Shown: positions 33,420-49,976 of the stretch, in pieces | Position numbering within the stretch: the stretch's first letter is position 1 | Layout: every line of letters starts with the position of its first letter | DNA from: Opitutia bacterium | Lineage (GTDB): Bacteria > Verrucomicrobiota > Verrucomicrobiia > Opitutales > Seribacteraceae | Length of the DNA: 64,000 bases | NCBI GenBank assembly: GCA_002716045.1 | Contig: PAZC01000020.1 | Span: forward strand, 165,220 to 229,219 | Direction of reading: 5' to 3' | Program-made: the position numbers and the translations under genes | The notes under the pieces: model-generated | The model's database searches: none | What the model was told of the DNA's origin: nothing | What the model saw: the letters and a program-made list of their open reading frames with translations, nothing else

Positions 33420-34199
33420 TCAATCACTGTCGCTCTCGACCTTGAGCTCCGGGATATTGAGTCTCGCCATGGTCTTGACCAACTCTTGCACCTTTTCCTG
33501 GGGCACTGATTTGGAGGCGCGGATCACAACCTTGGTCGGAAAGCGGGAATTCACTTTGTTGGCAATCTCCTCCAAAGGAATCGGTTGGCCACCTATGCGA
33601 ACGCCGCCGAATTGATCCATCTCAACGGTTACTACGATGGCCTTACCGAAATCCTTGAACATCCACTGGTTATTCAAGGTAAAAACGGAAAACACTTTTT
33701 CCACACCATCGTGAAAAGCCACTACATCGTATTCCTTGACTTTCCCTGTCTCCTTTAGAATGAGGTCCCCACGCGTACGTAATATCTTGAGAAGAGCCTC
33801 CTTTTCCTTGGCCGGCAAAGCTTGAATGGCTGGTGTCTTTCTGATTTTGATTCCACCGACCATATATAGGCGCGCGCCATGATAGTTGTATGTGGGATAA
33901 TGCACGTCGCCAATCCAATGAGTGTCATTTTCCTTTATCCTGACTTTTTTATCGAAAATGGTCCGTTTCATCCACATACCAGCCATCAAGCGATTGGATT
34001 TGATGAATGCGTCCCGATCGATCTTCTCGGGAAGCAGGAAAGTCAATGACACTTTCTTGCCAGCCCTCGCATTGGCCTCGATGGTCTTTGGCTGGATTTT
34101 CTTATCGGCGAAACCAACTGCCACCAAAAGGCAGGAGAAAAACAAGACGAGGAAACTGCGACAGGCATTCATGAATATGTCATTGGTTATCCGTTGCAT
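33420..34199 (-). CDS. Hypothetical exported protein with ExbD/TolR-like C-terminal domain
   Basis: N-terminal hydrophobic segment (FLVLFFSCLLVAVGF). The last ~70 aa (AIVVTVEMDQFGGVRIGGQPIPLEEIANKV...KVVIRASKSVPQEKVQELVKTMARLNIPELKVE) follow the ExbD periplasmic-domain pattern. The start is 3 nt after the vWA gene stop. Confidence 0.55.
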   Translation of the reverse strand: MQRITNDIFMNACRSFLVLFFSCLLVAVGFADKKIQPKTIEANARAGKKVSLTFLLPEKIDRDAFIKSNRLMAGMWMKRTIFDKKVRIKENDTHWIGDVHYPTYNYHGARLYMVGGIKIRKTPAIQALPAKEKEALLKILRTRGDLILKETGKVKEYDVVAFHDGVEKVFSVFTLNNQWMFKDFGKAIVVTVEMDQFGGVRIGGQPIPLEEIANKVNSRFPTKVVIRASKSVPQEKVQELVKTMARLNIPELKVESDSD

Positions 34200-34202
34200 G
34201 AA

Positions 34203-35342
34203 TCAGCGCAATCCTTTGCGGGCAGCCTGCGTTTGGATTATTTCGCTGACCTTGGCGTCGAAGCCATCACCTTTGCCCGCTTCGGCAAGTCGCTTTTTCT
34301 CGGCGAGGACAAAGGTCTGGCGCTTCTTCAGCAAATCGTCCAGCTCGGACTGAACTGCGCGGCGCTCAGTAATTTGCTTCTGCAAATGAGCTTCCCTTTC
34401 CTTCTGCGACATCTTCTTCAGGTTCTCCGGAAGTTTCTTCTCATCGACTTCGTCCCAATTGAGCTTCTTTTCCTCAAAAAGGGCAACCAGGTCCTGATCC
34501 CCAGTTATAACCTTGTAGGAAGATGCTCCATCCAGCTTCTGCATGGAATTGAAAGTCACCCGATCCGCAGCTGCCTCAGCGGGAGCCGACAAAGCCAGAG
34601 AATTCTTCTTCAAGGCGCTTTGCTGTTCCCATGCCGAACCATACACACATACAGTGCCCCCCAGTCGGGCATTACATTTCGAGATAGCTTCATCATAGGG
34701 TGAAGTGATGGCAACCACACCTCCGCTTTGCTGGATGGCAACGTACTCACCTTCGGCCAACTGGGCGATCTTCTTCCAAATGGGGGTGGTCGAACTCATC
34801 GTGCCGCACTGGATGGTATTGATGATAAGGTCTTTCTTGACCGCCATTTTACAGACCGCGGGATACTTGACGTCATCTTGGTAATCCATGTGCGGAGGCG
34901 CATCACCAACGAGGAACACCATCTTAAGCACCTTGCGACTCTTGCTCCATGACATTTTCTCGACCGACTCGTGCAATGCTTGGTTGACCGACTCAGGAGT
35001 GTCACCGCCGCCTTGGGCTTGAAACTTCATGAGCTTGCCGTAGATCTCATCGACGTCGTCAGTCAAATCGTGCACTTGGGTCACGTATTGGTCGCCACGG
35101 TCACGGTAACCGATCAAGCCAAACTTGATGTCAGGGACAGGCTTGGTCGAAATCATCTCGTTCGCGATAGACCAAATCTTTTGTTTTGCGCCTTCGATAA
35201 GGCCTCCCATGGAGCCAGTCGTATCGAGTACGAAACAAACCTCGATCTTCGGTTTTTTCTTTGTTTTCGGTTTATTCGGCTTGGCGACTACGGAGCCGAA
35301 GATAAAAGTAAGTGAAAGGATTGCTAGAGTAATATTTTTCAT
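34203..35342 (-). CDS. Secreted von Willebrand factor A (vWA) domain protein with C-terminal coiled coil
   Basis: Signal peptide from the ATG at 35342 (MKNITLAILSLTFIFGSVVA). MIDAS motif CFVLDTTGSMGG. The C-terminal ~90 aa are Lys/Glu-rich and helical. The ORF-track start at 35372 is a TTG. Confidence 0.8.
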   Translation of the reverse strand: MKNITLAILSLTFIFGSVVAKPNKPKTKKKPKIEVCFVLDTTGSMGGLIEGAKQKIWSIANEMISTKPVPDIKFGLIGYRDRGDQYVTQVHDLTDDVDEIYGKLMKFQAQGGGDTPESVNQALHESVEKMSWSKSRKVLKMVFLVGDAPPHMDYQDDVKYPAVCKMAVKKDLIINTIQCGTMSSTTPIWKKIAQLAEGEYVAIQQSGGVVAITSPYDEAISKCNARLGGTVCVYGSAWEQQSALKKNSLALSAPAEAAADRVTFNSMQKLDGASSYKVITGDQDLVALFEEKKLNWDEVDEKKLPENLKKMSQKEREAHLQKQITERRAVQSELDDLLKKRQTFVLAEKKRLAEAGKGDGFDAKVSEIIQTQAARKGLR

Positions 35343-35487
35343 GATTTCAGTCGGTTTGAAGTGCATTGGCAATTCGGTGGGTTCATGTTTCGATTAATGC
35401 GATTCATGTTAGCGCAAAATGAATTTCAGTTGTCATGGAAACGTAAAAGGGACGTCAAACTTTCAACCGAAAACAAGCATGTGAAAT

Positions 35488-35525: not shown

Positions 35526-37310
35526 TCACTCGTCAGCCAAAGCTTTCCCGATAGCGCCCATCACTTGAGTGATCACGGAAAAATCAAATTCCTTGCGATC
35601 CTCAAAAGCAAGGTCAGGCCAAACAGCGGGTCGCAACTCGAAAGAATCGCCGCCATAACGTATCTTCCCCACTTCCAGGCGCGACGAACCATCCAACTTC
35701 TTCACTAGAATGGAAGCCAATGCACCAGTTTCATGGACTCCCACAGTTACTCGGAGTCCCAAAGCATTGAATCGCTGCAAGGTACGCACGGACAAGTAAG
35801 TGGTCTTGCCTTCCTGCCTGGGTTTCTCGATCCATCCGCCTATGCGACGCACAGAGTGCTCAAGCAAAGTATTCAAGCCAAGAACGGTAGACAAATAAGG
35901 TGAATCCAAAAGATTGGCTCCACTTTTCCTCGCAGCATCAAGAGAAGAGGCAATGGTTGCCCCACCCTGTAAGTTGAATCCCCCGCCCTCTTCACGCTCC
36001 AAAGTGAAATTGGGAGCAGGCACGGGTCCACTGGTGGCAAAGCGCATGATCTTGTCCGCGCCAGCGAGGTAGAGGCCGGAGGACTTGGCATCGGTTCTGT
36101 AGGCAAACTTGACGCTCTCACCCTCACTGACGTGAAGTTGCAAGAGATTCTTGTTGGGAATCATCCCTAGGTAAGCAGTGTAATTGAAAGTTTTCCCTTC
36201 ATCGTCCTTTTTGGAAAAGGAAATCTCCGCATCTAGTCCAGTGGTGTCTTTGCCAAAAGACTTGGAGATGCCCAAAATACTTTGCACCACAAGAGCTCGA
36301 CGTTCGTCCCAACTCCGCACCCCGTCAGCAAAATCGGTTGCGGTTCGAGACCAAGGTTTTGCGCCGGAGGTGGCCTGTACAAGATCCTTCAAGGCATCTT
36401 CGGCTCTAGATTCAGCCCACAAGACCTTGGCCCGCAAGACACGATACTTGGCATCGGATCGAATAGCCTTGGGCAAAGCATCCAAAAGAACAAGGGCTTG
36501 CTTGCCTCCAGAGCCCCAGACAGCTCGTTCCGCGAGTATCTTGACGATCTCTGGCGAGCTGCGCTCCGACTTGGGCAAAGCTGCGGCAAAAAAATCGATA
36601 CAAAATTCAAGTGTCGCAGATTCCTCGTGTTCCAGCAAGGCATGAAGCCTGCGCAACTTCTCGAGATCAGAAAGCTTGTCGTCCAAGGCAATGGCCAGTT
36701 CGGCAAAGTCCTCTTTGTCATTGGCCAAGTCTTCACGAAGTTGTGGCAAAACGGCGTTTTTGAGGGCATCGTCACCAGCTGTTAGCGAATGAAGATAGCA
36801 ACGTAGTTGAAAATCGGCATCATTGAGAAACTCAGCCCCAAATTGACGAAAGCCCGCTTTCACTACCCGACAAAACCTGCCAGCAAACTCCGACTCGCCG
36901 ACAGGACCCTGGATATCAACCAGAAACTCCCTCAGTTCCTTCGCCTCCTCAAAAGTGGAAACCAGATGAGTGGACTGAACGCTCGCGGGATAATCCAAAA
37001 GCAACCGGCGTTTGGCCTCGACCGCAAGTTGCTCATTTTTCAAGGCAGTGGCAATGATGAGCAAGTCATTGGCAACACGAGGGGCGTAGAGTGATTGAGG
37101 GTTGGCCTCTAAAAATGCCAAAGCTTCCTGAACGTAAGCCGCAACTCTCCCTCCTTGCAGATACTCCTCGAACAAGGGTGCCTTGACTTCGACCGCACGG
37201 GAAAAGGGCGAACAGACGAGCAACAACAAGAACAATCCAAGTGGACTCGAACTAAGGGGACTAGACATGCGAACAGAGTAACTTCTTTTAAGGAGATCGA
37301 AAAGTTTCAT
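35526..37310 (-). CDS. Hypothetical exported protein (~590 aa): helical N-half, beta-rich C-half
   Basis: Long ORF with coding-like composition. Candidate ATG starts at 37310 (MKLFDLLKR...) and 37268 both precede a hydrophobic leader (LGLFLLLLVCSPFSRA). The ORF-track start at 37394 overlaps the upstream gene. No motif recognised. Confidence 0.55.
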   Translation of the reverse strand: MKLFDLLKRSYSVRMSSPLSSSPLGLFLLLLVCSPFSRAVEVKAPLFEEYLQGGRVAAYVQEALAFLEANPQSLYAPRVANDLLIIATALKNEQLAVEAKRRLLLDYPASVQSTHLVSTFEEAKELREFLVDIQGPVGESEFAGRFCRVVKAGFRQFGAEFLNDADFQLRCYLHSLTAGDDALKNAVLPQLREDLANDKEDFAELAIALDDKLSDLEKLRRLHALLEHEESATLEFCIDFFAAALPKSERSSPEIVKILAERAVWGSGGKQALVLLDALPKAIRSDAKYRVLRAKVLWAESRAEDALKDLVQATSGAKPWSRTATDFADGVRSWDERRALVVQSILGISKSFGKDTTGLDAEISFSKKDDEGKTFNYTAYLGMIPNKNLLQLHVSEGESVKFAYRTDAKSSGLYLAGADKIMRFATSGPVPAPNFTLEREEGGGFNLQGGATIASSLDAARKSGANLLDSPYLSTVLGLNTLLEHSVRRIGGWIEKPRQEGKTTYLSVRTLQRFNALGLRVTVGVHETGALASILVKKLDGSSRLEVGKIRYGGDSFELRPAVWPDLAFEDRKEFDFSVITQVMGAIGKALADE

Positions 37311-37365
37311 CCATGGATACAGGTTTATCTCTCTGAATCCCACGAAAAAACAAGAATGGGGAAAG

Positions 37366-39783
37366 CTAGCTAGACGGGTTCTCTTCCGAGGCATCGGAGG
37401 ATGACTCGCGCGCGCTTGACACAGGGTTGCCGAAACCTATCTCCGGCAAGGTGTAGACCTTCATCTCCGTCTTGAGAAACTGGGCATCCTCGAACTTGAA
37501 AAGCTTGTCTAAAATCACCTCCGGGATGCGGCTTTTGGTGGAACGGTAAAGTTCCACACTGTCATTATAACCTGCTCGCATGAGAGCGACCTCGTTTTCC
37601 ATCCGGGTCAAGGAAGTCATCAATTCACGCATGAGTGTCTCCCCCTTTAGTTTCGGATATGCCTCGGCCAATGCGATCAGTCGAGTGGTCAAGGCAATTT
37701 CAACCTGCATGGTGGCTTCGAAGTCACTGGGAGCAAAACTGGTTTTGCCATGCACTGCGTTTCGCAGCTCGGCAATTCCCAGATGCACTTCCTTTTCATG
37801 TTGGAGATAAGCTTGGGCAACGGCTTCGAGATTGGGTATCAAGTCCACTCGCTTCTTCAGAGACACCTCAATGTTGGCCCATGCACGCTTGACCCGATTG
37901 CGAAGGAAAACCAGATCATTGAACATAAGTCCAAAAGTACTGAAAATCAGAAAAAACGGGGCTGTGAAAGAAGAGAAGAGAAAGTCGGTGGCCGCATAAG
38001 AACCAGTGCTGGCGAAAAGGAGCAGCACAAGCATCACTATGCCACTAAAACCGCAACTGACCAGAAACAGCCCCTTGCCGCTTTCCGCCAGCATCGTTTC
38101 CTTTTCCGTGAAGCCGGATATGAGAAAAGGAAAGTCATCGTTGCGACCCTCCGAAAGTTGAAGACTGACCCCTTCCACGGGTTCGACTTCGGCTGACCCC
38201 AGAATATAAAGGTCTTGCTCGGCCAACAAACTCCACTCCTGATAAGTTCGTCGACCGGAGCGGCGCGATTTAACCAGAGGCGCGGAGATTTCGGCTCCCT
38301 TGGGATCAACCAAGGTCGATCCTTCCCTGTCCTTGCAAAAGAAAGGAACCGCGTCTTTCCGATCCTCGATGGTGACAGTCCTCCGATTCTTGCCCGATCC
38401 CCGGGTCTCCGTCACCTTGTAGCGAAAATAGGCGCATTTCTTCTTTGACAGAGGCCCTGTCAGGACTCTGTCCTCAATCAACTCCATTTGCCCCTGAATC
38501 TCAGCTGGACCGTAGGCCAAGCCGGAAGAAAGGGAGGTCGGCACGTTCTCGATGTAGCGCTTGATCTTGATTCGCTTAAACCCATAAACACTGCCCACGC
38601 CACCCACAATCAAGGCCACGGCGCCGCCAATCCAGCCAAGCCAAGCTGAAATAGGACTCGGGATAATCTCTGCTTCAGCGGACCGTTGTTCTCCCGGGGC
38701 CAAAATCGATGGCTTGGGGTCAATGCCCCACATTGGAGCAAGCCAACTCTCGGGAAACCTCTCCCGAATGGCATTGCTTCGCTCAATGGAGGCAGAGAGG
38801 TCATTGCGTATACCGAGCGCTCGAGCTGATTTGGCATTTGGCAAACCTGAGACACGCTGCGGTAGCGAAGACCACTCAAACTTCGATTCCAAAACAGACT
38901 GCACTGCCTCGCGGGCAGATTCCTCATGTCGATCCAAGCGCTCGTAACCGTCCTTCAGGTCGGAGTGCATCATGTTCAACCCCATAAAGAACAAAACCAA
39001 CAGATTCAGGGTTGATACAATCGACAAGAAAATCAGTACGCGATGCACCTTCATCAGGAAACAAATGCAAAGGATGCCAAATATGAAACAAAGAGCGCTC
39101 CCAAGAGTCATCAGGATTCCATTGGTGCCTTGGGCTTTGCGAGCTTGGAGAGCCGTGTATTCAGATAGAATTGGCACATAGGATCCAGATTTCGTGAAAG
39201 TGAGCATCAGGCCTTCGGAAACAGCTGCTGATTTGGATCCCGATGCCGGACTATTCTTTTGACGCGGAGCAGGTCTCTTCTGAGCCAAGGCGAAGGCAAA
39301 GACGTTTTGACCTTCGTCAATTCGCCATTCCGTGTATCGGCGATCGCCCCGATAATTTTTATAATCCTGCTGCAAGTCAGGGGAAACTCCTGAAAGAGAA
39401 ACCAAAATGGCTCCCGTATTGTCCTTCAGCAAAAAATGACCCGCGTGTCGAGAACCTTGGTCTATGGTAGCCCAATAAGTGTCACCCTCCGAATCTGTTC
39501 TGCGCTCTTCCTCCAACCAATAAACAAAAAAACACTCTCTACCGGAGTACTTCCCTTTAATGGTTCTGCCTGCGCTGGCGGCCTGACCCTGCATACTAAC
39601 CTCACCCGGAATAACAGCAATGACATCAACGTGGGGGATGCGTTCCATTTTCCTCATGTCCTGTATTTTATCGAATCCGCTGGATTGAAGAAAAAAGCCG
39701 CCAAAAAGCAAAGTCAGCCCAAGCGGAAGCAAACAAAATTTCAGGCAACCACTTCCACACCCACTGTTGCAACCAAGCTTCAT
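37366..39783 (-). CDS. Polytopic membrane protein: two GIDE-like modules fused to a C-terminal LemA domain
   Basis: 805 aa with hydrophobic segments at about aa 14-33, 222-270, 377-401 and 571-625. Two similar soluble modules carry the GIDE-like signature (G-x-V/I-x-x-Q-G-Q...K-x-S/K-x-x-x-C-x-F/Y-x-x-Y/W). The LemA signature is at aa 620-775 (FNDLVFLRNRVKRAWANIEVSLKKRVDLIPNLEAV...AGYNDSVELYRS; nt 37459-37926). Confidence 0.75.
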   Translation of the reverse strand: MKLGCNSGCGSGCLKFCLLPLGLTLLFGGFFLQSSGFDKIQDMRKMERIPHVDVIAVIPGEVSMQGQAASAGRTIKGKYSGRECFFVYWLEEERRTDSEGDTYWATIDQGSRHAGHFLLKDNTGAILVSLSGVSPDLQQDYKNYRGDRRYTEWRIDEGQNVFAFALAQKRPAPRQKNSPASGSKSAAVSEGLMLTFTKSGSYVPILSEYTALQARKAQGTNGILMTLGSALCFIFGILCICFLMKVHRVLIFLSIVSTLNLLVLFFMGLNMMHSDLKDGYERLDRHEESAREAVQSVLESKFEWSSLPQRVSGLPNAKSARALGIRNDLSASIERSNAIRERFPESWLAPMWGIDPKPSILAPGEQRSAEAEIIPSPISAWLGWIGGAVALIVGGVGSVYGFKRIKIKRYIENVPTSLSSGLAYGPAEIQGQMELIEDRVLTGPLSKKKCAYFRYKVTETRGSGKNRRTVTIEDRKDAVPFFCKDREGSTLVDPKGAEISAPLVKSRRSGRRTYQEWSLLAEQDLYILGSAEVEPVEGVSLQLSEGRNDDFPFLISGFTEKETMLAESGKGLFLVSCGFSGIVMLVLLLFASTGSYAATDFLFSSFTAPFFLIFSTFGLMFNDLVFLRNRVKRAWANIEVSLKKRVDLIPNLEAVAQAYLQHEKEVHLGIAELRNAVHGKTSFAPSDFEATMQVEIALTTRLIALAEAYPKLKGETLMRELMTSLTRMENEVALMRAGYNDSVELYRSTKSRIPEVILDKLFKFEDAQFLKTEMKVYTLPEIGFGNPVSSARESSSDASEENPSS

Positions 39784-39829: not shown

Positions 39830-39863
39830 AAAAAAAAGCGTGCAACTTGCCCGAGTTGCACGC
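39830..39863 (-). terminator. Rho-independent terminator after the MscS gene
   Basis: Perfect 10-bp stem (gcgtgcaact / agttgcacgc) with a 6-nt loop. On the minus strand it is followed by TTTTTTTT (39830-39837). It separates the MscS gene from the GIDE-LemA gene. Confidence 0.8.
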
Positions 39864-39995
39864 TGACTTGAAAGGGTGAGTCTTTTGTTTGGAATAACTC
39901 ACCGAAAGTTTTTCTAAGACCATGATCTAATAGGATGAATCATCCACTTTAGGACAAATAAGATGAGAAACTTTTCTGCTGTGGCTTGATTTCGT

Positions 39996-41057
39996 TCATT
40001 TCTCGGTTGGAAAGTGTCCATCAGGAAAGCGTATCGTCATGGGCGTGGGCAATTCGACGCCATGCTCTTTTTGCAAATCAAAAGCAGCCTCGCGAATGGC
40101 ATCTTGTGTTTGAATTAAACGGCGAGGAGACACCAGGGTATAGAGAAGTCGCCATCTCACCCCATGGTCATCGCATTCCTTGAGTCCTACGACAAAACCA
40201 CCTTCTTGGTCCACCAAACCTTTCTCCAAGGCCTGTTCCCAAACTGCCTTCAGGTATTCATTGACGGCAGCGCTGGTGACATCGTAACCGATAATGAAAT
40301 CAACGTGGTTTCGAATTCCTCTGGCAAGGTCGGTTTTAAGGACATCCACCCGACTGTTCTGCAATTTGAAATTTGGAAGGATGATGTCGTGTCCGTCCAC
40401 AAGGTCTCGAATCACGGTTTGCAAAGGACGAATCTGGAGCACCACTCCCTCGATGGCCTCGTCCCTGATACGTATCACGTCGCCGCGCTCAAGCCTCCCT
40501 TGGCTAATCAAGATAATGCCACTTAGAAAATCGCCGGCCCAGTACTCCTTGCTGGCAAAGAGAAAAAGGGCGATGAAGCCTATTACACTGGTCGTTTGCA
40601 ACCAATCCTCAAAACCCCAAATATTGATGAGGAGGACGGCAGCCACACAGAAAATAATGGCGCAACAAACCAGCTCCAAGGTACGGGAAGTATGAGTCTC
40701 GGTGGTGCGGGAAAAGTCATCGATGGTGCGGGTCTTGCCATATTTGCGGAGAATAAAGGCTTCCACGAAATGAATGAGCAAGAAACTGCATAAAATAACC
40801 AAAAAGGTCTGGCTAAAGGAAGCCGCCAGATGTTGCTCAAAAATAACCGCGATCAAATAGGTGGCAAAAAGCAGGAAGTTGCCCACGTTTAAGATTCGCA
40901 GGCGAACCAGACTCTGCTCTTCGTCCTTGATTTTTCCGTAACGCGTGGCGAATCGCTTGGAAAAAAGAAGAATGAGCAGGTTGATTCCCAAGGTAAAGTG
41001 GTCGATAGGATCGAGAACACTCAACCGATTGATTGCTTCTTGGTAAAATTCCTCCAT
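39996..41057 (-). CDS. Mechanosensitive ion channel (MscS family)
   Basis: 353 aa with N-terminal TM helices and the MscS beta-domain motif GDVIRIRDEAIEGVVLQIRPLQTVIRD. Confidence 0.85.
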   Translation of the reverse strand: MEEFYQEAINRLSVLDPIDHFTLGINLLILLFSKRFATRYGKIKDEEQSLVRLRILNVGNFLLFATYLIAVIFEQHLAASFSQTFLVILCSFLLIHFVEAFILRKYGKTRTIDDFSRTTETHTSRTLELVCCAIIFCVAAVLLINIWGFEDWLQTTSVIGFIALFLFASKEYWAGDFLSGIILISQGRLERGDVIRIRDEAIEGVVLQIRPLQTVIRDLVDGHDIILPNFKLQNSRVDVLKTDLARGIRNHVDFIIGYDVTSAAVNEYLKAVWEQALEKGLVDQEGGFVVGLKECDDHGVRWRLLYTLVSPRRLIQTQDAIREAAFDLQKEHGVELPTPMTIRFPDGHFPTEK

Positions 41058-41205: not shown

Positions 41206-44200
41206 CTAGCGAAGTGTGGAGAGAAAGGCGAGCAGGTCACGTATTTCGCGTTTCGACAAAATGCCGCCGGCAGGTGGCATGGGAGAGGTCAGGATTTGCG
41301 AAGCGACAAGATTGCGTTGGAGGGTGAATTGCTTTCCATCTGGCGACTGCAAGGCATAGGTCTCGGCAGTCGCTTCCGTTATAGACCCGGTGACCGTTGA
41401 CCCGTCTTTCAAGGTAGCCACGAGAAGGCCGTATCCCTCGGCCAACTCGGCTTGGGGGTTCACTAAGGACTCAAGTAATTTCTCGGGATTCAAACGAGCA
41501 GACACCTTCGAGAGATCGGGCCCCAAGACACCACCTGACGAGCCCACCTTGTGACAGCGAATGCACTGGGCGGCCGGATGACCAAAAGCGACCTTTCTGC
41601 CAGCCTCCGCATCCCCTCCGCTCAAGGTCGGCAAAAAAGAGCCCCAGGCACCTTTGGCAGCAAGCTCGTCTTGCCTTGCCTTGGCTTTGACTCTAGAAAT
41701 CTTCCCTCTTGCCTCGCCCGCTGCCTCAAGGAGGTCCAATTCGAGCTGAGGATCAAGTTTGGCGAACTGGGCTGCAAGCAAAGCATCCGCCTGAGAATCA
41801 TCGGATTGAGCGAGGTTATGGAGGGCCGACCTTTTTTCCTGCAGGCCCCCGGACTCGAGTGCCTTGGCAAAGACCTCGATCCCGGAAAGACCTGCCGCCC
41901 AAGCTCTTTTTTGGGCAGCGGCCCGCAACCGGGCATCCTTTGATTCCAAGGCAACCTCCACATATTCGCCCAAGGCAGGGTCGCTCAACTCTGCCATTGT
42001 CCCGAGAAGCTGAGCCTGCAGGAAGGCAGTTGCCTTGTCCGAGTCGTAGGCAGCGCGAACAACAGGGAGTAGATCGGTTACCTTGAGTCGCTCTATGGCA
42101 CGGGCCAAGACAGTCAACACCTTGGCCGATGCGCTGCCGACCAACTCATCCGCAACCTTGGACAATGCCTTGGCAGCTGGTTTCGGATCGCGGGGCGGAT
42201 ATTTTCGATAGCGCCCTTCCACGGCATCGAGGACGGGAGGTTGAGGCCAGAGGGCTAGACAGGCCAAGGCGGTGGTACGCATATTCTCGGGAGCATTCGC
42301 TTTGGCAGCATAGCGAGCTAGCCTTGCTGCATCTTCGGGACGACCAACACGGAAATTGGCATTGATGGCCCGACGTAGAAGCGGCTCCCCTTTCAAGTCA
42401 GAGCGATCCAAAACCTCGGCCAAGGCGGGAAGGGCATCGGGAATAGAGAAATCATCGTGAATCGCTCGGGCCACTTCCGTAACGAGATAAAGATCCTCAT
42501 CCTGAAGAAAAGAGGTGATTTCCGGATGAGCGTGCCGGCGAAGAGCAAGAATGGCAGCAAGGCGGATGGAGGTATCACTGGATTTCGATGCATCGACAAG
42601 AGGTTGCGAATTCGCAGTGGTTGCGCCCACTAGTCCCATGACCGCAGCATGGCGAAGAAAAGCATCCTTGTCGTCGTTTTGAGCCAGCAGGGCGAAAAGC
42701 GGCTTCACAGCTTGCGGAACTTGTAGTTTACCAAGTGCAAGAGCAGCATGAAAACGAACACGGATAGAGTTATCGGCAAGTAATTCGATAAGGGCATTGG
42801 CGGCAGGCAAATGCTTGGACTCGCCCAATACCTTTGCCACCTGGGCCCGCACTTCCTCATCCTTATCCGAGAGAAATTCAAAGAGCAAATTGACCGCATC
42901 AGGATTAGCTTTGGCATGAGGAGGCCACCCGCGGACCACCTGACCTAAACCCCATAAGCCATGCAGGCGGGCGAGGCGATGTTCTGTTTGCACGCTTGCT
43001 GCAAGCAATGCCTCCTGCCCTTTTCCACCTCGACGAACCAACTCAAACTGAGCGGCCTTGCGGATTCGAAGATCATTTTCGCGAAGCAGCGTTGCGAGCT
43101 CTTCAACGGAACGCTTTTTCATGCCCTCAGCCAAGATTCGACGAACCCTTTTGCGCACCGGGGAGTCGGCGGTACGCGGATCATCTATTTTCCAGACCCT
43201 ACCTCGTTCGCTCGGCCCGTTCATCCAGTCCGTGACGTAAAGGGCGCCGTCAGGACCAATGGTGAGACCGGTATTGCTGCTACAGCCGGGAACCCTCTGC
43301 TCATCGAACATCTCGAAGGCAGCGCCTTTGGGGCGCACCTTGAACGCCGTGATGCTTCTACCTTGGGCAAGGAAAAAGGATTTGCGGAATTTCTCATTGA
43401 GAGCAGTTCCCGGATCATATACGAACCCACAGGGTCCGTTGGAATAACTCGCAAGAGGCGGCACAATGAAGGCCGCCTGTCCGGGGAAGCGCGGACGAAA
43501 GAGCCCCTCCTCCATCCAAACGTTGTAGGGTTTCTCACCGGACACTTTGGCGAAGTCCTGATAGCCGTACCATTGCCAGTGCAGGCGCCATGCGGTCATT
43601 CCTCCTTCCACAATGTAAATGAAACGCTCGCGCTCGCCTCGATAGTCGCCGTCATTATCCACGCTGAAAAGGTTCCCGAACTCGTCGAATACAGGCTCTT
43701 GTCCGTTGCGTACTCCCAAGGCGAATACCTCCAGACGCGAACCGTCGGGTTCGCATCGCATGATGGCCCCACGGTCAGGGTAAAAGAAGCGCTCGCCGTC
43801 CTTTCCCGTGGCGTTGATGCCCTTGTCGGCGACAGACCAATAGATGCGTCCGTCAGGGCCCATGGTCAGGCCGGACACGTTGTGACCTCCCTGCCCTATG
43901 TGGATGGAGTATCCCCGACTGATGAGCGTTCGCTTGTCGGGAATTCCATCGCCGTTGGAATCGTCGTATTTCCAGATATCGGGCTCAACGGCCGCATAAG
44001 CCGCTCCCTCCGCCCACAAAACACCGGCAGCAATGCCCATCACTGGGGAAGAAAGGTCTTGATCTATCGGCGTCATCTTATCCGCCTTGCCATCTCCATC
44101 CGTATCCTCGATGCGCAAAATCTCTTCCTTTTGCACCCCCAGGTCCCGCCAGTCACGCTTACCGTCGGCATTGCGGTCGGGAGGAGAATAAGGGCGGATG

Positions 44201-44922
44201 TCTGGAAAGGTGTTGGGCCCCATGGCCTTTTGATAAAAAGCGAGCTTGTCTTCCAGACTCCGGATGGAGAGGTCGTGCTTTACCCAAGCACGGTGGTTGC
44301 GAAGATCCAGACTAGAAATCTTTCGGCGCCGGACACGGGTGACGTAGGCCCTCCCCTGCTCGTCGAAACTGATCGCCACCGGACTTGCCACCAGCGGGTT
44401 CTCCGCCCAAACCGAAACCTCCAAGCCACTGGGATCCTTATGAACGGGAGGCGCAGCCTTGACCAATTTTTTGGAAAGCGAAAGCCCTTGGATTCGAAAA
44501 GTATGCAGGTTCACCCATTTATTCTCGTTGTTGCCTTGTGAAACAATGCGCAGAAAACGTCCTGCTGCCGCGGGAGCCGGGAATTTCTTGATTCCATCGC
44601 CTTGGCCATGACTTTTGCCTGAGAAGACCTGGTGCCATTTCTTTCCGTCGGCCGAAGTCTCCAAGGAGAACTCGTACCGCCGGTTGCCCCGGGAAAAGCC
44701 TGCCTCGAACTCAGCAAAGGAAAGCGGGCCATCCAATTCCAACTGCAACCATTGCCCCTTGCCCTCGGATGACCACCGGGTGCCTGGATTGGTGTCAATG
44801 GCATGTACAGGGTCATTTCCCTGCTGGGCGCCCGAAGCGCTGATCTTGGTAATCTCGACTGCGGAAAGAGACGCAGAAAAAAACCAGGCAAACAGAAGAG
44901 GAAGAAGGTAAAGTGTTTTCAT
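41206..44922 (-). CDS. PVC-type giant periplasmic protein: discoidin (F5/8 type C) + SGDH-like beta-propeller + HEAT repeats + C-terminal CxxCH heme-binding domain
   Basis: Signal peptide. Discoidin-like segment (AIDTNPGTRWSSEGKGQWLQLEL...). Propeller repeats with DGDG-type loops. A long HEAT-like helical region (...IRVRFHAALALGKL...). CIRCH at 41551-41565. Its start overlaps the stop of the upstream sulfatase (ATGA). Confidence 0.85.
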   Translation of the reverse strand: MKTLYLLPLLFAWFFSASLSAVEITKISASGAQQGNDPVHAIDTNPGTRWSSEGKGQWLQLELDGPLSFAEFEAGFSRGNRRYEFSLETSADGKKWHQVFSGKSHGQGDGIKKFPAPAAAGRFLRIVSQGNNENKWVNLHTFRIQGLSLSKKLVKAAPPVHKDPSGLEVSVWAENPLVASPVAISFDEQGRAYVTRVRRRKISSLDLRNHRAWVKHDLSIRSLEDKLAFYQKAMGPNTFPDIRPYSPPDRNADGKRDWRDLGVQKEEILRIEDTDGDGKADKMTPIDQDLSSPVMGIAAGVLWAEGAAYAAVEPDIWKYDDSNGDGIPDKRTLISRGYSIHIGQGGHNVSGLTMGPDGRIYWSVADKGINATGKDGERFFYPDRGAIMRCEPDGSRLEVFALGVRNGQEPVFDEFGNLFSVDNDGDYRGERERFIYIVEGGMTAWRLHWQWYGYQDFAKVSGEKPYNVWMEEGLFRPRFPGQAAFIVPPLASYSNGPCGFVYDPGTALNEKFRKSFFLAQGRSITAFKVRPKGAAFEMFDEQRVPGCSSNTGLTIGPDGALYVTDWMNGPSERGRVWKIDDPRTADSPVRKRVRRILAEGMKKRSVEELATLLRENDLRIRKAAQFELVRRGGKGQEALLAASVQTEHRLARLHGLWGLGQVVRGWPPHAKANPDAVNLLFEFLSDKDEEVRAQVAKVLGESKHLPAANALIELLADNSIRVRFHAALALGKLQVPQAVKPLFALLAQNDDKDAFLRHAAVMGLVGATTANSQPLVDASKSSDTSIRLAAILALRRHAHPEITSFLQDEDLYLVTEVARAIHDDFSIPDALPALAEVLDRSDLKGEPLLRRAINANFRVGRPEDAARLARYAAKANAPENMRTTALACLALWPQPPVLDAVEGRYRKYPPRDPKPAAKALSKVADELVGSASAKVLTVLARAIERLKVTDLLPVVRAAYDSDKATAFLQAQLLGTMAELSDPALGEYVEVALESKDARLRAAAQKRAWAAGLSGIEVFAKALESGGLQEKRSALHNLAQSDDSQADALLAAQFAKLDPQLELDLLEAAGEARGKISRVKAKARQDELAAKGAWGSFLPTLSGGDAEAGRKVAFGHPAAQCIRCHKVGSSGGVLGPDLSKVSARLNPEKLLESLVNPQAELAEGYGLLVATLKDGSTVTGSITEATAETYALQSPDGKQFTLQRNLVASQILTSPMPPAGGILSKREIRDLLAFLSTLR

Positions 44923-46292
44923 TTCTTGGGCAACGGCTTGGGTGGTCTCGGCATGGGAGCATTAGTTTCCTTGAGCCATTCAGAGAGCCCGCGGTTCAAC
45001 CGGGCGGCAATCTTAGGGCGTTGCGCGGCCAGATTGTTTTTTTCACTTAGGTCCTTGGACATGTCATATAACTCGAGGGAGTCATCGTCATAGTTGCGAA
45101 TCAATTTCCAGTTAGCCGAACGAACGGCCCCTCCAAGACGGTTCCCCATATGCCAGGCATAGTTGGGGAAATGGAAGAAAATCTCGTTGCGCTTGAGTTT
45201 TCCGGTTTGTCGCAGAAGCGGTAAGATACTTTCCCCGTCAATTGGTTTATCATCAGGTTTCAAGCCGGCGAGTTCTAGGAAAGTGGGATAGAAGTCCATA
45301 CTGACAACTGGCGCGGAGGAGATGGTGCCAGCCTGCACCTTGCCTGGCCATTTGACAATCAGCGGGACGCGGATGCCACCCTCATAGAGATGTCCCTTGG
45401 ACTCCCGCAAGGGGCGACAATCGGAAACTCCAGCGAATCCGCCGTTGTCACTCGTGAAAATGACCAAGGTATCCTCCGCCAATTTCATTTCGTCCAGTGC
45501 CTGCAACAAGCGCCCGACAGCTAAGTCCATCGCCTCGATCATGGCCCCGTAACGGGTGTCATTCAGCCCAGGGCCTTTGCGGTCAGCGTATTTCTCAAGC
45601 AATGACTCCGGTGCCTGCATGGGCCAATGCACGGTATAGAACCACAGGTGAGTCATCCATGGTTTTCCCTTGTTCGCCTGGATGAACCGTACGGTTTCAT
45701 CAACCAATCGGTCAGGCAAATATTCACCCTTGGGGCCATCGGTCAGTTCGGCGTTTCGGTAAGGGGAAAAAAAGCTTGGCGGACCACCGTAAGAAGTGCC
45801 TCCCACGTTCAAGTCAAAGCCCTGTCCGGTGGGAGAAACATCCTCCGCCACCTTTCCTCCGCGCGCCACACTTGGAGCGATGTGCCACTTGCCCAGAAAA
45901 GCGGTAGCATACCCCGCTTCTTTCATACGCTCGGCAATAGTGACGTGTTCGCCATTCAGCTGCGGTGTGAGCTCGGCCGGTTGCGGACGGCCGTCTTTAG
46001 GGAAAAAGCGGCCGGGCAAGTGGGTAGTCAAACCGATGCGAGCCGGAGCTTGCCCCGTGAGCACGGCGCAACGAGTGGGGGAACAAACGGGGGCCGCTGC
46101 ATAGGCATCGGTAAAACGCATGCCCTGCTTGGCCATCTGATCCAAATGAGGCGTTTCAACCAACTTGTTCCCCTGGCAGGCCAAGTCCATCCAGCCGAGA
46201 TCATCAGCCATGATGAATAGAACATTGGGCTTGGCAGGGCAGCTCCCCATCAGGACAAGCAAGAAGATCGAAGACAAAGTGAAGGGTTTCAT
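44919..46292 (-). CDS. Formylglycine-dependent sulfatase
   Basis: FIMADDLGW metal-binding start and the CSPTRCAVLTG active-site motif. Start trimmed to the ATG at 46292 (MKPFTLSSIFLLVLMGSCPA, signal peptide). Confidence 0.9.
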   Translation of the reverse strand: MKPFTLSSIFLLVLMGSCPAKPNVLFIMADDLGWMDLACQGNKLVETPHLDQMAKQGMRFTDAYAAAPVCSPTRCAVLTGQAPARIGLTTHLPGRFFPKDGRPQPAELTPQLNGEHVTIAERMKEAGYATAFLGKWHIAPSVARGGKVAEDVSPTGQGFDLNVGGTSYGGPPSFFSPYRNAELTDGPKGEYLPDRLVDETVRFIQANKGKPWMTHLWFYTVHWPMQAPESLLEKYADRKGPGLNDTRYGAMIEAMDLAVGRLLQALDEMKLAEDTLVIFTSDNGGFAGVSDCRPLRESKGHLYEGGIRVPLIVKWPGKVQAGTISSAPVVSMDFYPTFLELAGLKPDDKPIDGESILPLLRQTGKLKRNEIFFHFPNYAWHMGNRLGGAVRSANWKLIRNYDDDSLELYDMSKDLSEKNNLAAQRPKIAARLNRGLSEWLKETNAPMPRPPKPLPKK

Positions 46293-46462
46293 GTAGATCG
46301 GACAGATTCGAAAACCAGAAATCTCGAGGATGCAACGGTACAATGCAAACTGCCTTGTCACACAAAAGAAGGAAAGTGATGGTTCTTCCAGCTTGAGCCG
46401 CAGCAAGAAATCTTTCATTAAGACAATCTACTGATCTCCAGATAACCCAATCCAATCCTATT

Positions 46463-46942
46463 ATGAAACTATCTAACTACCTCCTTTGCTTCGCGTCCCT
46501 GCTTGCCTTTTGCTTTGCCGCAACCGCCAAGCCGGATGCAAAGAAATTGCCTCGCACGCCATCACCCAAAGGGGCCAAGACCTATATCATCTTGCCCAAG
46601 GACGGCAAAACGGTGAAGCCCAAGTTCAAAGTGATCTTTGGACTCAAGGGAATGGGCGTTTGCCCAGCCGGCATAATAACGCCGGAAGGCAAGTCACCCG
46701 CCAACACGGGGCACCATCACTTGCTCATCGACATGGAGAAATTGCCCCCGATGGACCAGCCTCTGGCCGCCAGCGACAAGCTGAAGCACTTCGGCGGAGG
46801 GCAAACCGAGGCCTTGATTGAACTGAAGCCAGGCAAGCATACCTTGCAGCTGGTCTTCGCCGACTTCGCCCATATTCCGCACGACCCACCGGTGGTATCG
46901 GAAAAGGTAACCATCACGGTGGAAGCTCCGAAAAAGAAATAA
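46463..46942 (+). CDS. DUF4399 domain protein (secreted)
   Basis: 159 aa with a signal peptide and the family-typical GHHHLLID and HFGGGQTE motifs. Confidence 0.7.
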   Translation: MKLSNYLLCFASLLAFCFAATAKPDAKKLPRTPSPKGAKTYIILPKDGKTVKPKFKVIFGLKGMGVCPAGIITPEGKSPANTGHHHLLIDMEKLPPMDQPLAASDKLKHFGGGQTEALIELKPGKHTLQLVFADFAHIPHDPPVVSEKVTITVEAPKKK

Positions 46943-46967
46943 GCTTTAGGCAATTCGCCTTACGAAG

Positions 46968-46994
46968 CCTCCGGCCTCAGGGTCGGAGGTTTTT
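46968..46994 (+). terminator. Rho-independent terminator after the DUF4399 gene
   Basis: Stem cctccggcc / ggtcggagg (one G-U pair) with loop tcag, followed by TTTTT (46990-46994). Confidence 0.65.
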
Positions 46995-48457
46995 CATTTC
47001 TTCTTCGGCTTGCGCTTTTTTGCGGGAGCCTGCGGATCGTAATTCGGGTTGGGCACGGGCATTTTGGCTCTCATTCTCTTTTGCCAAGCAACGAGCTTGC
47101 CTTGCAGTTCCTTTGTTTTTTCGGGATTTGCCTTGGACAGGTCTTTCTTCTCCGAGGGATCCGTTGCCAAATTATATAGCTCGACTGTATCATAGTGGTA
47201 GAAGGCAATCAGTTTCCAGTCACCGTCGCGAATAGAGGCACCCGGCTTCCAAGTCGATCCATGGTAATGAGGATAGTGCCAGTAGAGTGGACGAGGCTTC
47301 CCTGCCCCACCCTTCAACTCGGGCATAAGACTACGGCCATCAGAGTGCAGCTTTGGCTTGAGAGGAAGACCGGCCAAATGAAGCATGGTGGGAAAGAAAT
47401 CCATGCTGACGACAGGTTCGTCGGAACTGCTGCCAGGCTTCGTAATGCCGGGGGCGCGGATGATTGTCGGTTCACGCACGCCGCCTTCATAAAGCCATCC
47501 CTTTCCTGCCCGAAGCGGCGAGTTGCAACCTGGTCCTGGTCCACGCAAAGTACTTAGGCCGCCATTGTCGCTGAAGAATATGACCACCGTGTCATCGGCT
47601 AGCTTGAGCTCGTCCAGCTTGTCCAGCAAAGAGCCCACGCTGTCGTCCACGGCGGCAACCATGGATGCGAGGGCCGCATTGTCCTGACGCATGCGTGTGT
47701 TGCCTTCGTGTTCCTTACTCACGGGGGTAGTTCCCTCAAAGGTCTTCTCAGCCTTGGCCTTGTAGTGGTCGATGCGTTTCTTGTAAGGTTGGATCGGAGT
47801 ATGAATGTTGTAATAGGAGAGATACAGCAGGAAAGGTTTCTTGCTGTTTCGTTTCTCGATGAACTTGATGGATTCCTCGGTCAGGCGTTCAGTAAGATAT
47901 TCGCCAGGCTTCTTGGCTTTGAGGGCGGGATTCGTCCAAGGGGCATAATAACCGCCCGGCGGTGACCCTCTGTGGTGGCCACCGACATTGACGTCGAATC
48001 CCTGGTCCTCGGGCCAGTGACCCTCGCTCCCTAAATGCCACTTGCCGGCAAAGAAAGTCTGGTAGCCATGCCCCTTCAGTTCCTCGGCAATGGTCACTTC
48101 TTCATGAGCCAAGTTATTGCGGTCCTGCGGATGAAGAAGCTTGTTTCGGTTGTTGTTGGACTGGCCGGGAATCCAGTCAGTGATGTCGACCCGCACGGGA
48201 TGCCGTCCCGTCATGATGCTGGACCGGGTAGGCGAACATACGGGACAAGCCGCGTACCCATTGGAGAACTTCATACCGGTGGCAGCCAGTTTGTCGATGT
48301 TGGGCGTCTCATGAAAAGTGCTGCCATTGGCTCCTATGTCTGCCCAACCCATGTCATCGACCAAAAAGAAAACGAAGTTGGTTGGTTTCTTGGCGGCGAA
48401 AGCGGTACAGCTAACGACCAATGAAAGAAGAAAGAAGGATTTGATTAGGTGTTTCAT
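46994..48457 (-). CDS. Formylglycine-dependent sulfatase
   Basis: FFLVDDMGW and [11 protein letters not shown] motifs. Start trimmed to the ATG at 48457 ([21 protein letters not shown]). Confidence 0.9.
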
Positions 48458-48482
48458 GAAATGAGAAGGTGGAAGGCTTGGA

Positions 48483-49976
48483 TTACTGGTTGCCGGCAGG
48501 CTTAGGCTTCTTGGGCTTCGAAATATCTCGAACTTGCGGAACAGGTGGCCTGGAGGGTCGTTGACCGATAAAATCGAAGAAGCGCATGTTCTCTCCAACC
48601 TGATCGAAATCGCCCAAGTCCTTCCGCATGTCCTGAGCCAACCCAAGCAGCTTCTTGACTATATCCGGATGTTGTTCGGCAAGGTTGGTGGTCTCGCCCA
48701 AGTCTTTGTCCAAATCGACGAGGAAAGGATCCTTGAAGCCCACGCGATCAACGGGCGCAATGTGCCGGTTGACGAGAAAAGGCGCTGTGCCGGGTTGCAT
48801 TTTCTGCCGTGGCAAATGCAACTTCCATTTGCCCTGTCGGACGGCCTGCAGGTGCACCCTAAGGTAATAGTGGAATGCCTTGTCCGGATTCGCCTGGTCG
48901 AATTCACCATGAAAAAGGTGGGCGACGTCTTCACCGTCGATGACGCGATCCTGGGGCAACTCAGCCCCGGCCAAGGCCGCGAAGGTGGGCAGAACGTCCA
49001 ATGTGCTGGCAATCTTGTCGCAGGTAACTCCTGCAGGAACCCGCCCGGGTCCCCAAAGGACGGTGGGCACACGCACACCGCCCTCGAAGGTGGAAACTTT
49101 GCCGCTCCTCAAGGGACCTGCCGAGCCGCCATGGTCGCGGGGCAAACTGCCATCTTGATGATCCTTGTTCTTGATCAGCCAAGGACCGTTGTCGCTGGTG
49201 AAGAGAACGTAAGTGTTCTTCGAGAGGCCCATCCCCTCAACCGCATCCAGTATTCGTCCGACGTTGAAGTCTATCTCCTCGATGACGTCGCCGTACAGTC
49301 CCCGCTTGCTCTTTCCCTTGAACTGGGCCGTGGCGTCCAAGCGAGTGTGCGGCATGGTGTGTGGAAGGTAGACAAAGAACGGCTTGTTTTTGTTCTTCTT
49401 CATGAAGGCGATCGCCTCGTCGGTGTAGCGCTTGGTCAAGGGAGCCATATTGGTCTTCGGCTCAATCAGTTTTTCATTCCGATAGAGGTTGACCACGGCA
49501 TCGTTGCTGGTCGGGGTGCCGAAGAAATAATCAAAGCCCTGTCGGGTGGGGAAAAGGTCGATGAAGAAGCCCCTTTGAGCATGCTTGGCCAAATCCCATT
49601 TGCCGAAACAGGCAGTTGCATAATCTTTCGTTTTCAACACTTCGGCGATGGTGATCTCTTTGGCGTGTAGTATGGGGTGGACGTTCTTGACGGTCCCCCG
49701 TTCCGCTACCCGCATGGGTTGACAACCTGTCATGATGGCCGCCCGGGAGGGCCCGCAGATGGGTTGAGCGTAAAAACTTGTGAACCTCATGCCCTCCTTG
49801 GCCATGCCGTCGATGCGGGGAGTCCGAATGTCCTTGGAACCAAAGCAACCCGCGTCGCCGTATCCCATGTCGTCAGCGAAAATCACAACAAAATTGGGCG
49901 GGGCTGACTGGGCGAAGGTAATTCCAGCGACAGTCAGCCATCCGACAAGCCCGAGTGAACGCCATAAGAAGTACAT
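48483..49976 (-). CDS. Formylglycine-dependent sulfatase
   Basis: [11 protein letters not shown] and [11 protein letters not shown] motifs, with a signal peptide from the ATG at 49976. Confidence 0.9.

Follow-up and report, generated by a model that had tools for sequence, protein, structure and literature searches.

A Six-Transmembrane Bacterial Protein Composed of Two Tandem GIDE–LemA Units and Its Predicted Mirror Topology

Introduction

LemA and GIDE (also known as BAM, "beside a membrane") are widespread families of membrane proteins for which essentially no mechanism is known. The present work concerns a gene for an 805 amino acid (aa) protein in which domains of both families are joined, and which is located on the reverse strand of a 64,000-nucleotide (nt) stretch of contig PAZC01000020.1 (assembly GCA_002716045.1, positions 165,220 to 229,219), referred to below as the window. 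The proteins of the LemA family (PF04011), which include Thermotoga maritima LemA (PDB 2ETD) and the magnetosome protein MamQ, canonically contain a single transmembrane (TM) segment and are about 185–200 aa long. MamQ has been described as the sole member of this family that is linked to a cellular process (PMC4902198), and a LemA-like domain has been predicted to act as an enzyme scaffold on the membrane's cytoplasmic face, where it perhaps perturbs lipid packing (bioRxiv 10.64898/2026.07.15.738315). The prokaryotic GIDE/BAM proteins (PF12483) are about 250 aa long and consist of a beta-rich domain tethered between TM helices (TM-GIDE-TM). In MUL1/MAPL the BAM domain faces the mitochondrial intermembrane space, no prokaryotic BAM/GIDE protein is reported to carry a RING domain, and what the BAM/GIDE domain does, including its conserved role in human MUL1/MAPL, has been called an open question (PMC4457424).

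The window protein shares with the LemA family a bona fide C-terminal LemA domain of 155 aa that is immediately preceded by a TM helix, but it differs from the canonical members in its length, in its six TM segments, and in the presence of two GIDE domains and a second, decayed LemA domain. With the GIDE/BAM proteins it has in common the beta-rich domain tethered between TM helices, and the conserved K-R-x-I-E-N-x-P-T-S stalk that follows the TM segment of archaeal standalone GIDE proteins is found in both. It is distinguished from these proteins by its fusion to LemA and by having two GIDE copies per chain, one predicted to be periplasmic and the other cytoplasmic. In contrast to MUL1/MAPL, it contains no C-terminal RING domain and hence should have no E3 activity. 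The homologues of this protein are named "LemA family protein" by NCBI; the gene family is already present in databases under this generic name and the gene itself is not new. Our literature searches found no study of GIDE and LemA together, and no paper describing the conserved GIDE → LemA operon, the duplication of an entire unit with a cryptic second LemA domain, or the predicted mirror topology that are reported here.

Domain Organization of the Protein

An initial annotation, which was made from the sequence of the window alone, had described two GIDE-like modules and a C-terminal LemA domain interspersed with six TM segments. The order of the segments and the placement of the six TMs agree with our results, the two GIDE modules and LemA are confirmed by Pfam and profile comparisons, and the peptides that it quoted are exact (GEVSMQGQ...WLEEE, aa 60–93; GPAEIQGQ...KVTE, aa 425–459; MKLGCNSGCGSGCLKFC, aa 1–17). 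Both of the relevant Pfam profiles were matched above their curated cutoffs. The LemA profile was matched over its entire length (positions 1–149 of 149) by aa 634–784 (E = 4.5e-34; 117.9 bits against a cutoff of 26.2), and the profile of the family also matched the structure of T. maritima LemA (PDB 2ETD) with an E value of 3.7e-44. The GIDE profile was matched by aa 457–579 (E = 1.6e-10; 41.1 bits against a cutoff of 23.6), which form part of module 2 only. Module 1 of the window protein, when taken alone, falls below the Pfam GIDE threshold; it is counted as a GIDE homologue because it could be aligned with module 2 both by BLASTP (E = 4e-10) and by profile-profile comparison (hhalign, probability 99.9%, E = 8e-32). 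In 20 of 23 orthologues, module 1 itself matches Pfam GIDE.

The six hydrophobic segments recur throughout the family. TM1 and TM2 bracket module 1 (referred to as GIDE-A) and TM4 and TM5 bracket module 2 (GIDE-B), each GIDE domain thus being tethered between TM helices. A model obtained by AlphaFold2 (AF2) with 65 homologues had a predicted local distance difference test (pLDDT) score of 88.2 and a predicted template modeling (pTM) score of 0.81. It contains two all-beta domains, and TM6 continues in it into a helix comprising aa 607–677, which is followed by helices 685–708 and 714–750, as in the layout of LemA proteins. Foldseek comparisons with the PDB, carried out with the full AF2 model and with GIDE-B alone, revealed no significant similarity (best probabilities of 0.54 and 0.14, respectively, with template modeling scores of at most 0.15), and the GIDE fold was not assignable. 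Searches of Pfam and NCBIfam revealed no match to a RING, other zinc-finger or catalytic domain, the absence of RING being in accordance with the initial annotation, and the C-terminal domain of the protein is LemA. No similarity to transporter families was detected in the same two databases. The possibility that the protein is an orthologue of MamQ was rejected, as its score with the corresponding NCBIfam model (NF040966) was 62.7 bits against a cutoff of 250. The coordinates of these segments, and of other features of the locus that are discussed below, are summarized in Table 1.

Table 1. Features of the double GIDE–LemA gene and of the surrounding region of the window.
Feature	Position	Strand	Basis or remark
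Complete open reading frame, double GIDE–LemA membrane protein	37366..39783	-	Reading frame; same protein/DNA in independent assemblies
Cys5, Cys9, Cys13, Cys17 (C-x3-C-x3-C-x3-C), predicted cytoplasmic side of TM1	39733..39771	-	Lineage-specific
TM1, aa 17–33, signal-anchor-like, predicted in→out	39685..39735	-	N-tail net charge +2.0 (65 homologues)
GIDE-A, aa 34–221, stalk helix and beta domain, diverged copy, predicted periplasmic	39121..39684	-	Profile comparison, AF2
TM2–KVHR loop–TM3 helical hairpin, aa 222–272, loop predicted cytoplasmic	38968..39120	-	Loop net charge +1.57, acidic residues 0
LemA', aa 273–378, degenerate, shortened, predicted periplasmic; conserved R-F-P-E-x-x-L-A-P-x-W-G	38650..38967	-	hhalign
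TM4, aa 379–402, TM1 homologue, predicted out→in	38578..38649	-	Half-to-half alignment, charge bias
GIDE-B, aa 403–571, K-R-Y-I-E-N-x-P-T-S stalk and beta domain, predicted cytoplasmic	38071..38577	-	Pfam GIDE; post-TM4 charge +3.4
TM5–short loop–TM6 hairpin, aa 572–629	37897..38070	-	Conservation, AF2
LemA domain, aa 630–784, predicted cytoplasmic	37432..37896	-	PF04011; PDB 2ETD; post-TM6 charge +2.6
Acidic, Ser-rich disordered C-terminal tail, aa 785–805	37369..37431	-	pLDDT <50
Shine-Dalgarno-like GAGGAAA ahead of Met46	39648..39670	-	
Terminator-like hairpin and T8, 5' boundary of transcription unit	39837..39864	-	Between MscS-like gene and 805-aa reading frame
MscS-like mechanosensitive-channel gene	39996..41057	-	Upstream
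1238-aa protein, then two sulfatases	41206..48646	-	Upstream
622-aa reading frame	35526..37394	-	Directly downstream
Secreted VWA-domain protein	34203..35372	-	Downstream
259-aa reading frame	33420..34199	-	No Pfam match

Duplication of the GIDE–LemA Unit

The region between TM3 and TM4 had initially been described as a charged linker of about 100 aa, but it is in fact a degenerate LemA domain (denoted LemA'). A weak match of the LemA hidden Markov model (HMM) to aa 328–364 prompted a profile-profile test, in which aa 273–378 aligned with the LemA domain with a probability of 94.8% (hhalign, E = 5e-8, score 46.7). This score exceeds those of all controls, viz. the reversed profile (9.7), shuffled columns (11.0 ± 1.9, maximum 15.5) and shuffled blocks of seven columns (19.8 ± 4.3, maximum 30). 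In the best-paired part of the alignment, I-R-x-D-L-x4-E-R-x-N-x-I-x2-R-F-P-E-x2-L-A-P-L-W-G of LemA' is placed opposite M-R-x-G-Y-N-D-x-V-E-x-Y-N-x-R-I-x3-P-E-V-x-L-A-K-x-F of LemA. The AF2 model has helices 249–298, 304–313, and 316–340 in the LemA' region. In 120 of 246 proteins of this family, the LemA HMM also finds, upstream of its main match, a second and weak stretch, which in the listed examples covers HMM positions ~100–145.

When the two halves of the protein (aa 10–378 and aa 379–790) were aligned globally by hhalign, they matched over 353 columns with a probability of 100% and an E value of 1.5e-53. In this alignment, TM1 is paired with TM4, GIDE-A with GIDE-B, TM2 with TM5, TM3 with TM6, and LemA' with LemA. 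Based upon the half-to-half alignment and the LemA' match, the protein therefore has the structure [TM-GIDE-TM-TM-LemA] x2, and it is a tandem duplication of this whole unit. The initial annotation was thus right in noting that GIDE is present twice, but the duplication is not limited to GIDE and it spans the entire TM-GIDE-TM-TM-LemA unit.

Of the two units, the second (unit B) is the better-conserved half, the mean identity to the query being 0.47 for GIDE-B and 0.46 for LemA, versus 0.35 for GIDE-A and 0.34 for LemA' of unit A. TM6 is the best-conserved segment of the whole protein, and D600, N622, and D623 show little or no variation. These conserved residues are placed at the membrane boundaries, and the cores of the TM segments are without conserved charged or polar residues. 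TM6 ends with M-F-N-D-L-V-F-L, in which N622–D623 occupy the position of the [YF]-N-x-L motif of standalone LemA proteins.

Proteins of the family such as P0232, P0206, and P0226 were considered as candidates for a GIDE–LemA fusion with a single unit. They are open to contig ends or start within LemA', and were rejected as truncated gene calls. In a homologue of 465 aa (P0213), TM4-GIDE-B-LemA follows straight after TM1 and the ~30 N-terminal residues of GIDE-A, an arrangement that could be due to a deletion by recombination between the repeats or to a chimeric assembly.

Distribution of the Family and Accessory Domains

A search of 5.8 billion proteins yielded 126 matches, nearly all of which are 750–860 aa long and contain GIDE and LemA. 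The matches are from Opitutales, Limisphaerales, Tautonia, Phycisphaerales, Hahellaceae, Cellvibrionaceae, and Alteromonadaceae. With the module 2 profile, 184 representatives of clusters at 50% identity were retrieved at E <1e-30. Two GIDE modules and LemA are present in 220 of the 257 family clusters (694–1106 aa), the remainder being mostly fragments, and this fused architecture is found in the Verrucomicrobiota, Planctomycetota, and Gammaproteobacteria. In the few genomes that were inspected, the gene is present in a single copy.

Some members of the family contain additional domains. A PDZ domain is nested in a low-confidence loop of GIDE-A (aa 169–190) in some relatives, as in P0022, where query aa 169–174 are replaced by ~114 aa, and GYF_2 and TerB or TerB-like domains are located C-terminal to LemA in some homologues. 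Among the variants P0230, P0228, P0130, P0131, P0138, P0158, and P0251, those of 877–1106 aa have after LemA either TerB (two stretches in P0230) or TerB-like helices (identified by eye), and others have GYF_2. These C-terminal additions may hint at a link to TerB, to which Pfam assigns a function in tellurite resistance.

A Conserved GIDE → LemA Operon

The module 2 profile also retrieved standalone GIDE proteins of ~250 aa with the arrangement TM-GIDE-TM. For the first three of their loci, a gene for LemA (184–194 aa) was located directly downstream in two, and in the third it was found ~2.8 kb upstream on the opposite strand. GTDB species genomes were scanned by means of an alignment of standalone GIDE proteins, and the 80 loci that were retained, mostly from DPANN, Thermoplasmatota, and Methanosarcinales with a few from bacteria, were analyzed with the LemA HMM. 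In 64 of these 80 loci, a LemA open reading frame (ORF) is present directly downstream of GIDE on the same strand, with a median gap of ~25 nt; in eight others it lies on the same strand within 1.5 kb, in four it is elsewhere in the locus and in the remaining four none was detected. The LemA partner ORFs measure ~190–240 codons from stop to stop, and those that have been called encode 184–194 aa.

The split operon contains the same two domains as the fused protein and the gene order matches the order of the domains in the fusion. The three TMs of each gene pair correspond to one unit. The split form differs in that the genes are separate, each domain is present in one copy, and both are predicted to be cytoplasmic, the window protein being the fused and duplicated form. 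The N-tails of the standalone GIDE proteins are acidic or uncharged, and a strongly basic K-R-x-I-E-N-x-P-T-S segment follows TM1. In the LemA partners, the N-tails comprise ~7 residues with a K+R fraction of 0.19, and the post-TM net charge is +3.0. On the basis of these charge patterns, both soluble domains are predicted to be cytoplasmic with the N-terminus outside, as in unit B. From the operon and this predicted placement, unit B would appear to represent the ancestral arrangement.

The initial annotation had argued from the fusion that LemA and GIDE act as one unit, and had called for a survey of fused and split forms. The occurrence of the split GIDE → LemA operon in 64 of the 80 standalone-GIDE loci strongly backs this proposal. 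The conserved operon together with the fused, duplicated form indicates that GIDE and LemA are probably functional partners.

Membrane Topology

As there are three TMs per unit, the number of membrane crossings between GIDE-A and GIDE-B is odd, and it would be odd even if the hairpins failed to span the membrane. The topology was assessed from the net charge of the 15-residue flanks of the TM segments, averaged over 65 homologues. Among the flanks predicted to be inside, the net charge is +2.0 for the N-tail, +1.6 for the TM2–3 loop (which contains no acidic residues), +3.4 after TM4 and +2.6 after TM6, and a fifth such flank has a mean net charge of +0.1. For those predicted to be outside, the values are +0.75 after TM1, -0.3 before TM2, -0.5 after TM3, -0.9 before TM4, and -0.9 for the TM5–6 loop. 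The inside-minus-outside difference in net charge is greater than zero in all 65 homologues.

The charge bias and the parity of the crossings suggest a topology in which the N-terminus is inside, GIDE-A and LemA' are periplasmic, and GIDE-B and LemA are cytoplasmic. The positions of the accessory domains (PDZ in GIDE-A; GYF_2 and TerB after LemA) agree with this predicted topology. The N-termini of many homologues are signal-anchor-like, e.g., MKKTLNILLLLL..., and in Tautonia an extra N-terminal hydrophobic segment is followed by RRSR, which by our reading may hold the segment preceding TM1 in the cytoplasm.

Reading Frame and Translation Start

The gene is a single ORF, which starts with ATG and encodes 805 aa plus a stop codon with no internal stops. 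It belongs to a marine bacterium, for which the closest named homologues of the protein suggest an Opitutales-like affiliation. Gene callers are divided on its start, some predicting 805 aa and others 760 aa from Met46. The 90% identity cluster contains, in addition to the window protein, a second 805-aa copy (NCBI/Tara contig, 303 kb) and three 760-aa entries that represent the same protein from Met46. Over the 240 nt that span the start region, three independent Tara Oceans assemblies match the window with 100% identity, and the 760-aa calls therefore differ only by the start codon that was chosen. The 805-aa form is favored because TM1 is conserved across the family. The fusion proposed in the initial annotation is genuine and not an artefact of assembly, in view of the identical DNA in independent assemblies and the recurrence of the architecture in the family clusters.

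A Shine-Dalgarno-like GAGGAAA is present ahead of Met46, and it is from here that several public calls of the identical sequence (760 aa) begin. A start at this site would drop both TM1 and the Cys residues described below, and such an internal start could conceivably yield an isoform that lacks TM1.

The N-Terminal Cys Ladder

The four Cys residues at 4-residue spacing that the initial annotation had noted before TM1 are located exactly where it placed them. At least three Cys at i+4 spacing are found in only two of 114 full-length homologues, viz. the window protein and P0005 (GCKKGCGKGC). A single K-G-C-[LFY] is present just before TM1 in about a dozen homologues, most of which are at least 50% identical to the window protein, and the remaining full-length homologues have neither of these features. 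The distribution suggests that a juxtamembrane K-G-C motif has been elaborated into the ladder in a specific lineage, and the ladder does not belong to the conserved core mechanism. Residues 10–17 are already helical in the AF2 model, and the four Cys thiols would therefore line one face of a helix. Its candidate roles, all of them speculative, include metal binding, redox activity, acylation, and oligomerization.

Tandem Repeats Finder detected no tandem repeat in the DNA of the ladder. A recent tandem duplication of DNA was rejected as its origin based upon this result and upon the identity of the 12-nt units, which by eye is only ~7/12. A lipoprotein signal was likewise rejected, as the cysteines lie before the hydrophobic segment and not after it.

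Genomic Neighborhood

No conserved neighbors of the fused gene were found in five distant or close genomes. Its flanks are unrelated, and the flanking genes often convergent, in an Opitutales-like lagoon contig, Tautonia plasticadhaerens, a Hahellaceae metagenome-assembled genome and a 52%-identity relative. A 69%-identity relative retains no more than local synteny, and both the 622-aa downstream ORF and the upstream MscS-like gene of the window are missing from it. Most of the genes that flank it have ordinary metabolic or transport functions, and neither an integrase nor a transposase is found among them.

In the window, the gene is separated from the upstream MscS-like gene by the strong terminator-like hairpin and T8 with which the latter gene ends (Table 1). 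The adjacency of these two genes is retained in Tara contigs of the same species and lost in the 69%-identity relative. Directly downstream, the 622-aa ORF, if read from its first ATG, overlaps the LemA-encoding ORF by 29 nt, whereas an internal Met gives it a signal-peptide-like start (MSSPLSSSPLGLFLLLLVCSPFSRA); the Tara calls are of either 580 or 622 aa. This ORF has no Pfam or PADLOC match, and in the 69%-identity relative a gene for 161 aa is found in its place. The secreted VWA-domain protein encoded further downstream has a Lys/Glu-rich C-terminal tail, and the position of its gene is conserved, among the genomes checked, in the 69%-identity relative only. The 622-aa ORF and the VWA and MscS-like genes were rejected as conserved partners, since they represent local synteny that is partly lost at 69% identity. 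The 259-aa ORF beyond the VWA gene has no Pfam match. On the other side of the MscS-like gene, the 1238-aa protein contains F5/8-type C, DUF7133, HEAT-repeat, and cytochrome c regions. We take this gene and the two sulfatase genes that follow to be a set typical of marine polysaccharide degraders of the Verrucomicrobiota and Planctomycetota, which fits an Opitutales-like affiliation. PADLOC gave no match for the 805-aa protein or four of its neighbors.

Discussion

The explanation that we favor, and which we consider to be probably correct, is that the window protein is a self-contained six-TM protein of the inner membrane, whose duplicated units are inverted and which serves as a non-enzymatic scaffold or sensor at the membrane surface. 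According to this proposal, the fused unit would be the joined form of the GIDE → LemA gene pair, an operon with a wide distribution in archaea, and the odd number of membrane crossings per unit would leave the two units in opposite orientations. Unit B (GIDE-B and LemA) would retain the ancestral cytoplasmic position and form the conserved core. Unit A (GIDE-A and the decayed LemA') would have been exported to the periplasm as a diverging, faster-evolving part that accepts inserts such as PDZ. The same pair of membrane-hugging domains would in this manner be placed on both leaflets, with unit A possibly providing an outward-facing input or anchoring surface, and the state of the periplasm or envelope could be coupled to the cytoplasmic GIDE–LemA core in the maintenance or remodeling of the membrane.

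A number of points weigh against this proposal. No fused protein with a single unit, which would be an intermediate, was seen among the family candidates that were examined. The topology is a prediction, and the flank after TM1, although predicted to be outside, is still mildly positive. The C-terminal domain of MamQ/LemA has been described as extracellular or lumenal (PMC3905215), and this orientation is in conflict with the charge bias of 74 archaeal LemA partner ORFs and of the fused family, which points to an outside N-terminus and a cytoplasmic domain. Additionally, Foldseek identified no structural relative of the GIDE fold in the PDB that could steer the assignment of function, and the role as a scaffold or sensor, which is speculative, is an analogy.

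A more far-reaching version of this proposal can be put forward only tentatively. In it, the protein would be a trans-bilayer "mirror" device, which by the inverted duplication of a whole membrane-surface module grips both leaflets of the inner membrane and senses or controls a property of the bilayer, or relays periplasmic events to the cytoplasm, and the GIDE–LemA pairing would represent the ancient, pre-eukaryotic function of BAM/GIDE that survives in human MUL1/MAPL.

The alternative implied by the initial annotation is that both GIDE modules are located on one face of the membrane, where they would form an intramolecular dimeric sensor connected by a flexible charged linker. Although the two modules are clearly homologous, and AF2 gives one confident compact model, three TM segments (TM2, TM3, and TM4) lie between them, and the number of crossings is odd even if TM2 and TM3 do not span the membrane. 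The charge bias favors opposite faces in 65 of 65 homologues, and the supposed linker is a conserved, folded, LemA-like domain, so that this arrangement appears unlikely.

Inverted TM repeats are typical of channels, transporters, and lipid-handling proteins, and in the known examples (aquaporin, TRIC, and LeuT folds) the repeats are almost wholly membrane-embedded and form pores or carriers. The window protein resembles them in that its two halves are homologous and the TMs of each half are odd in number, and its 3+3 segments could accordingly be thought of as a channel, transporter or lipid-handling device in which the GIDE and LemA pairs act as gates on both faces. The predicted inverted 3+3 repeat and the strong conservation of TM6, with its invariant or nearly invariant D600, N622, and D623, are in favor of such a bundle. 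However, unlike in those proteins, ~300 aa of soluble domains are present in each repeat and are mirrored in the prediction, and no pore-like residues are conserved, the conserved polar residues being at the membrane boundaries rather than in the TM cores. The N622–D623 pair also coincides with the motif position of standalone LemA, the Pfam and NCBIfam searches showed no resemblance to transporters, and the Foldseek search of the PDB gave no significant match. This possibility is hence also regarded as improbable.

A role in an anti-phage or other conflict system, as its membrane effector or sensor, might be suggested by the large size of the protein, its location in the membrane and the variable accessory domains (PDZ, GYF_2, and TerB), but is very unlikely in view of the lack of a PADLOC match and of conserved partner genes, the ordinary flanking genes without integrase or transposase, and the single copy in each genome inspected. 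The least credible readings, to which we attach almost no weight, are that the protein is a bacterial E3 ubiquitin ligase, as the Pfam description of PF12483 ("E3 Ubiquitin ligase") and the UniRef name of the Tautonia sociabilis homologue P0080 ("RING-type E3 ubiquitin transferase") would imply, or that an assembly error or frameshift has joined separate genes, since no RING or catalytic domain was detected, prokaryotic BAM/GIDE proteins are reported to have no RING (PMC4457424), independent assemblies contain the identical ORF, and 220 clusters from three phyla share the architecture. The E3 label of P0080 looks like an annotation that was carried over from the name of the family, as no RING is present in the prokaryotic members that were checked.

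The absence of a RING and of any catalytic domain indicates that the protein is not a ubiquitin ligase, and the database names that describe GIDE–LemA proteins as E3 ligases are corrected by these results. If the proposed topology is true, the mirroring of ~300 aa of soluble domains through duplication of a unit whose TMs are odd in number would constitute an unusual case in the evolution of membrane proteins. For LemA and GIDE/BAM, their partnership provides a concrete and testable handle on both families.

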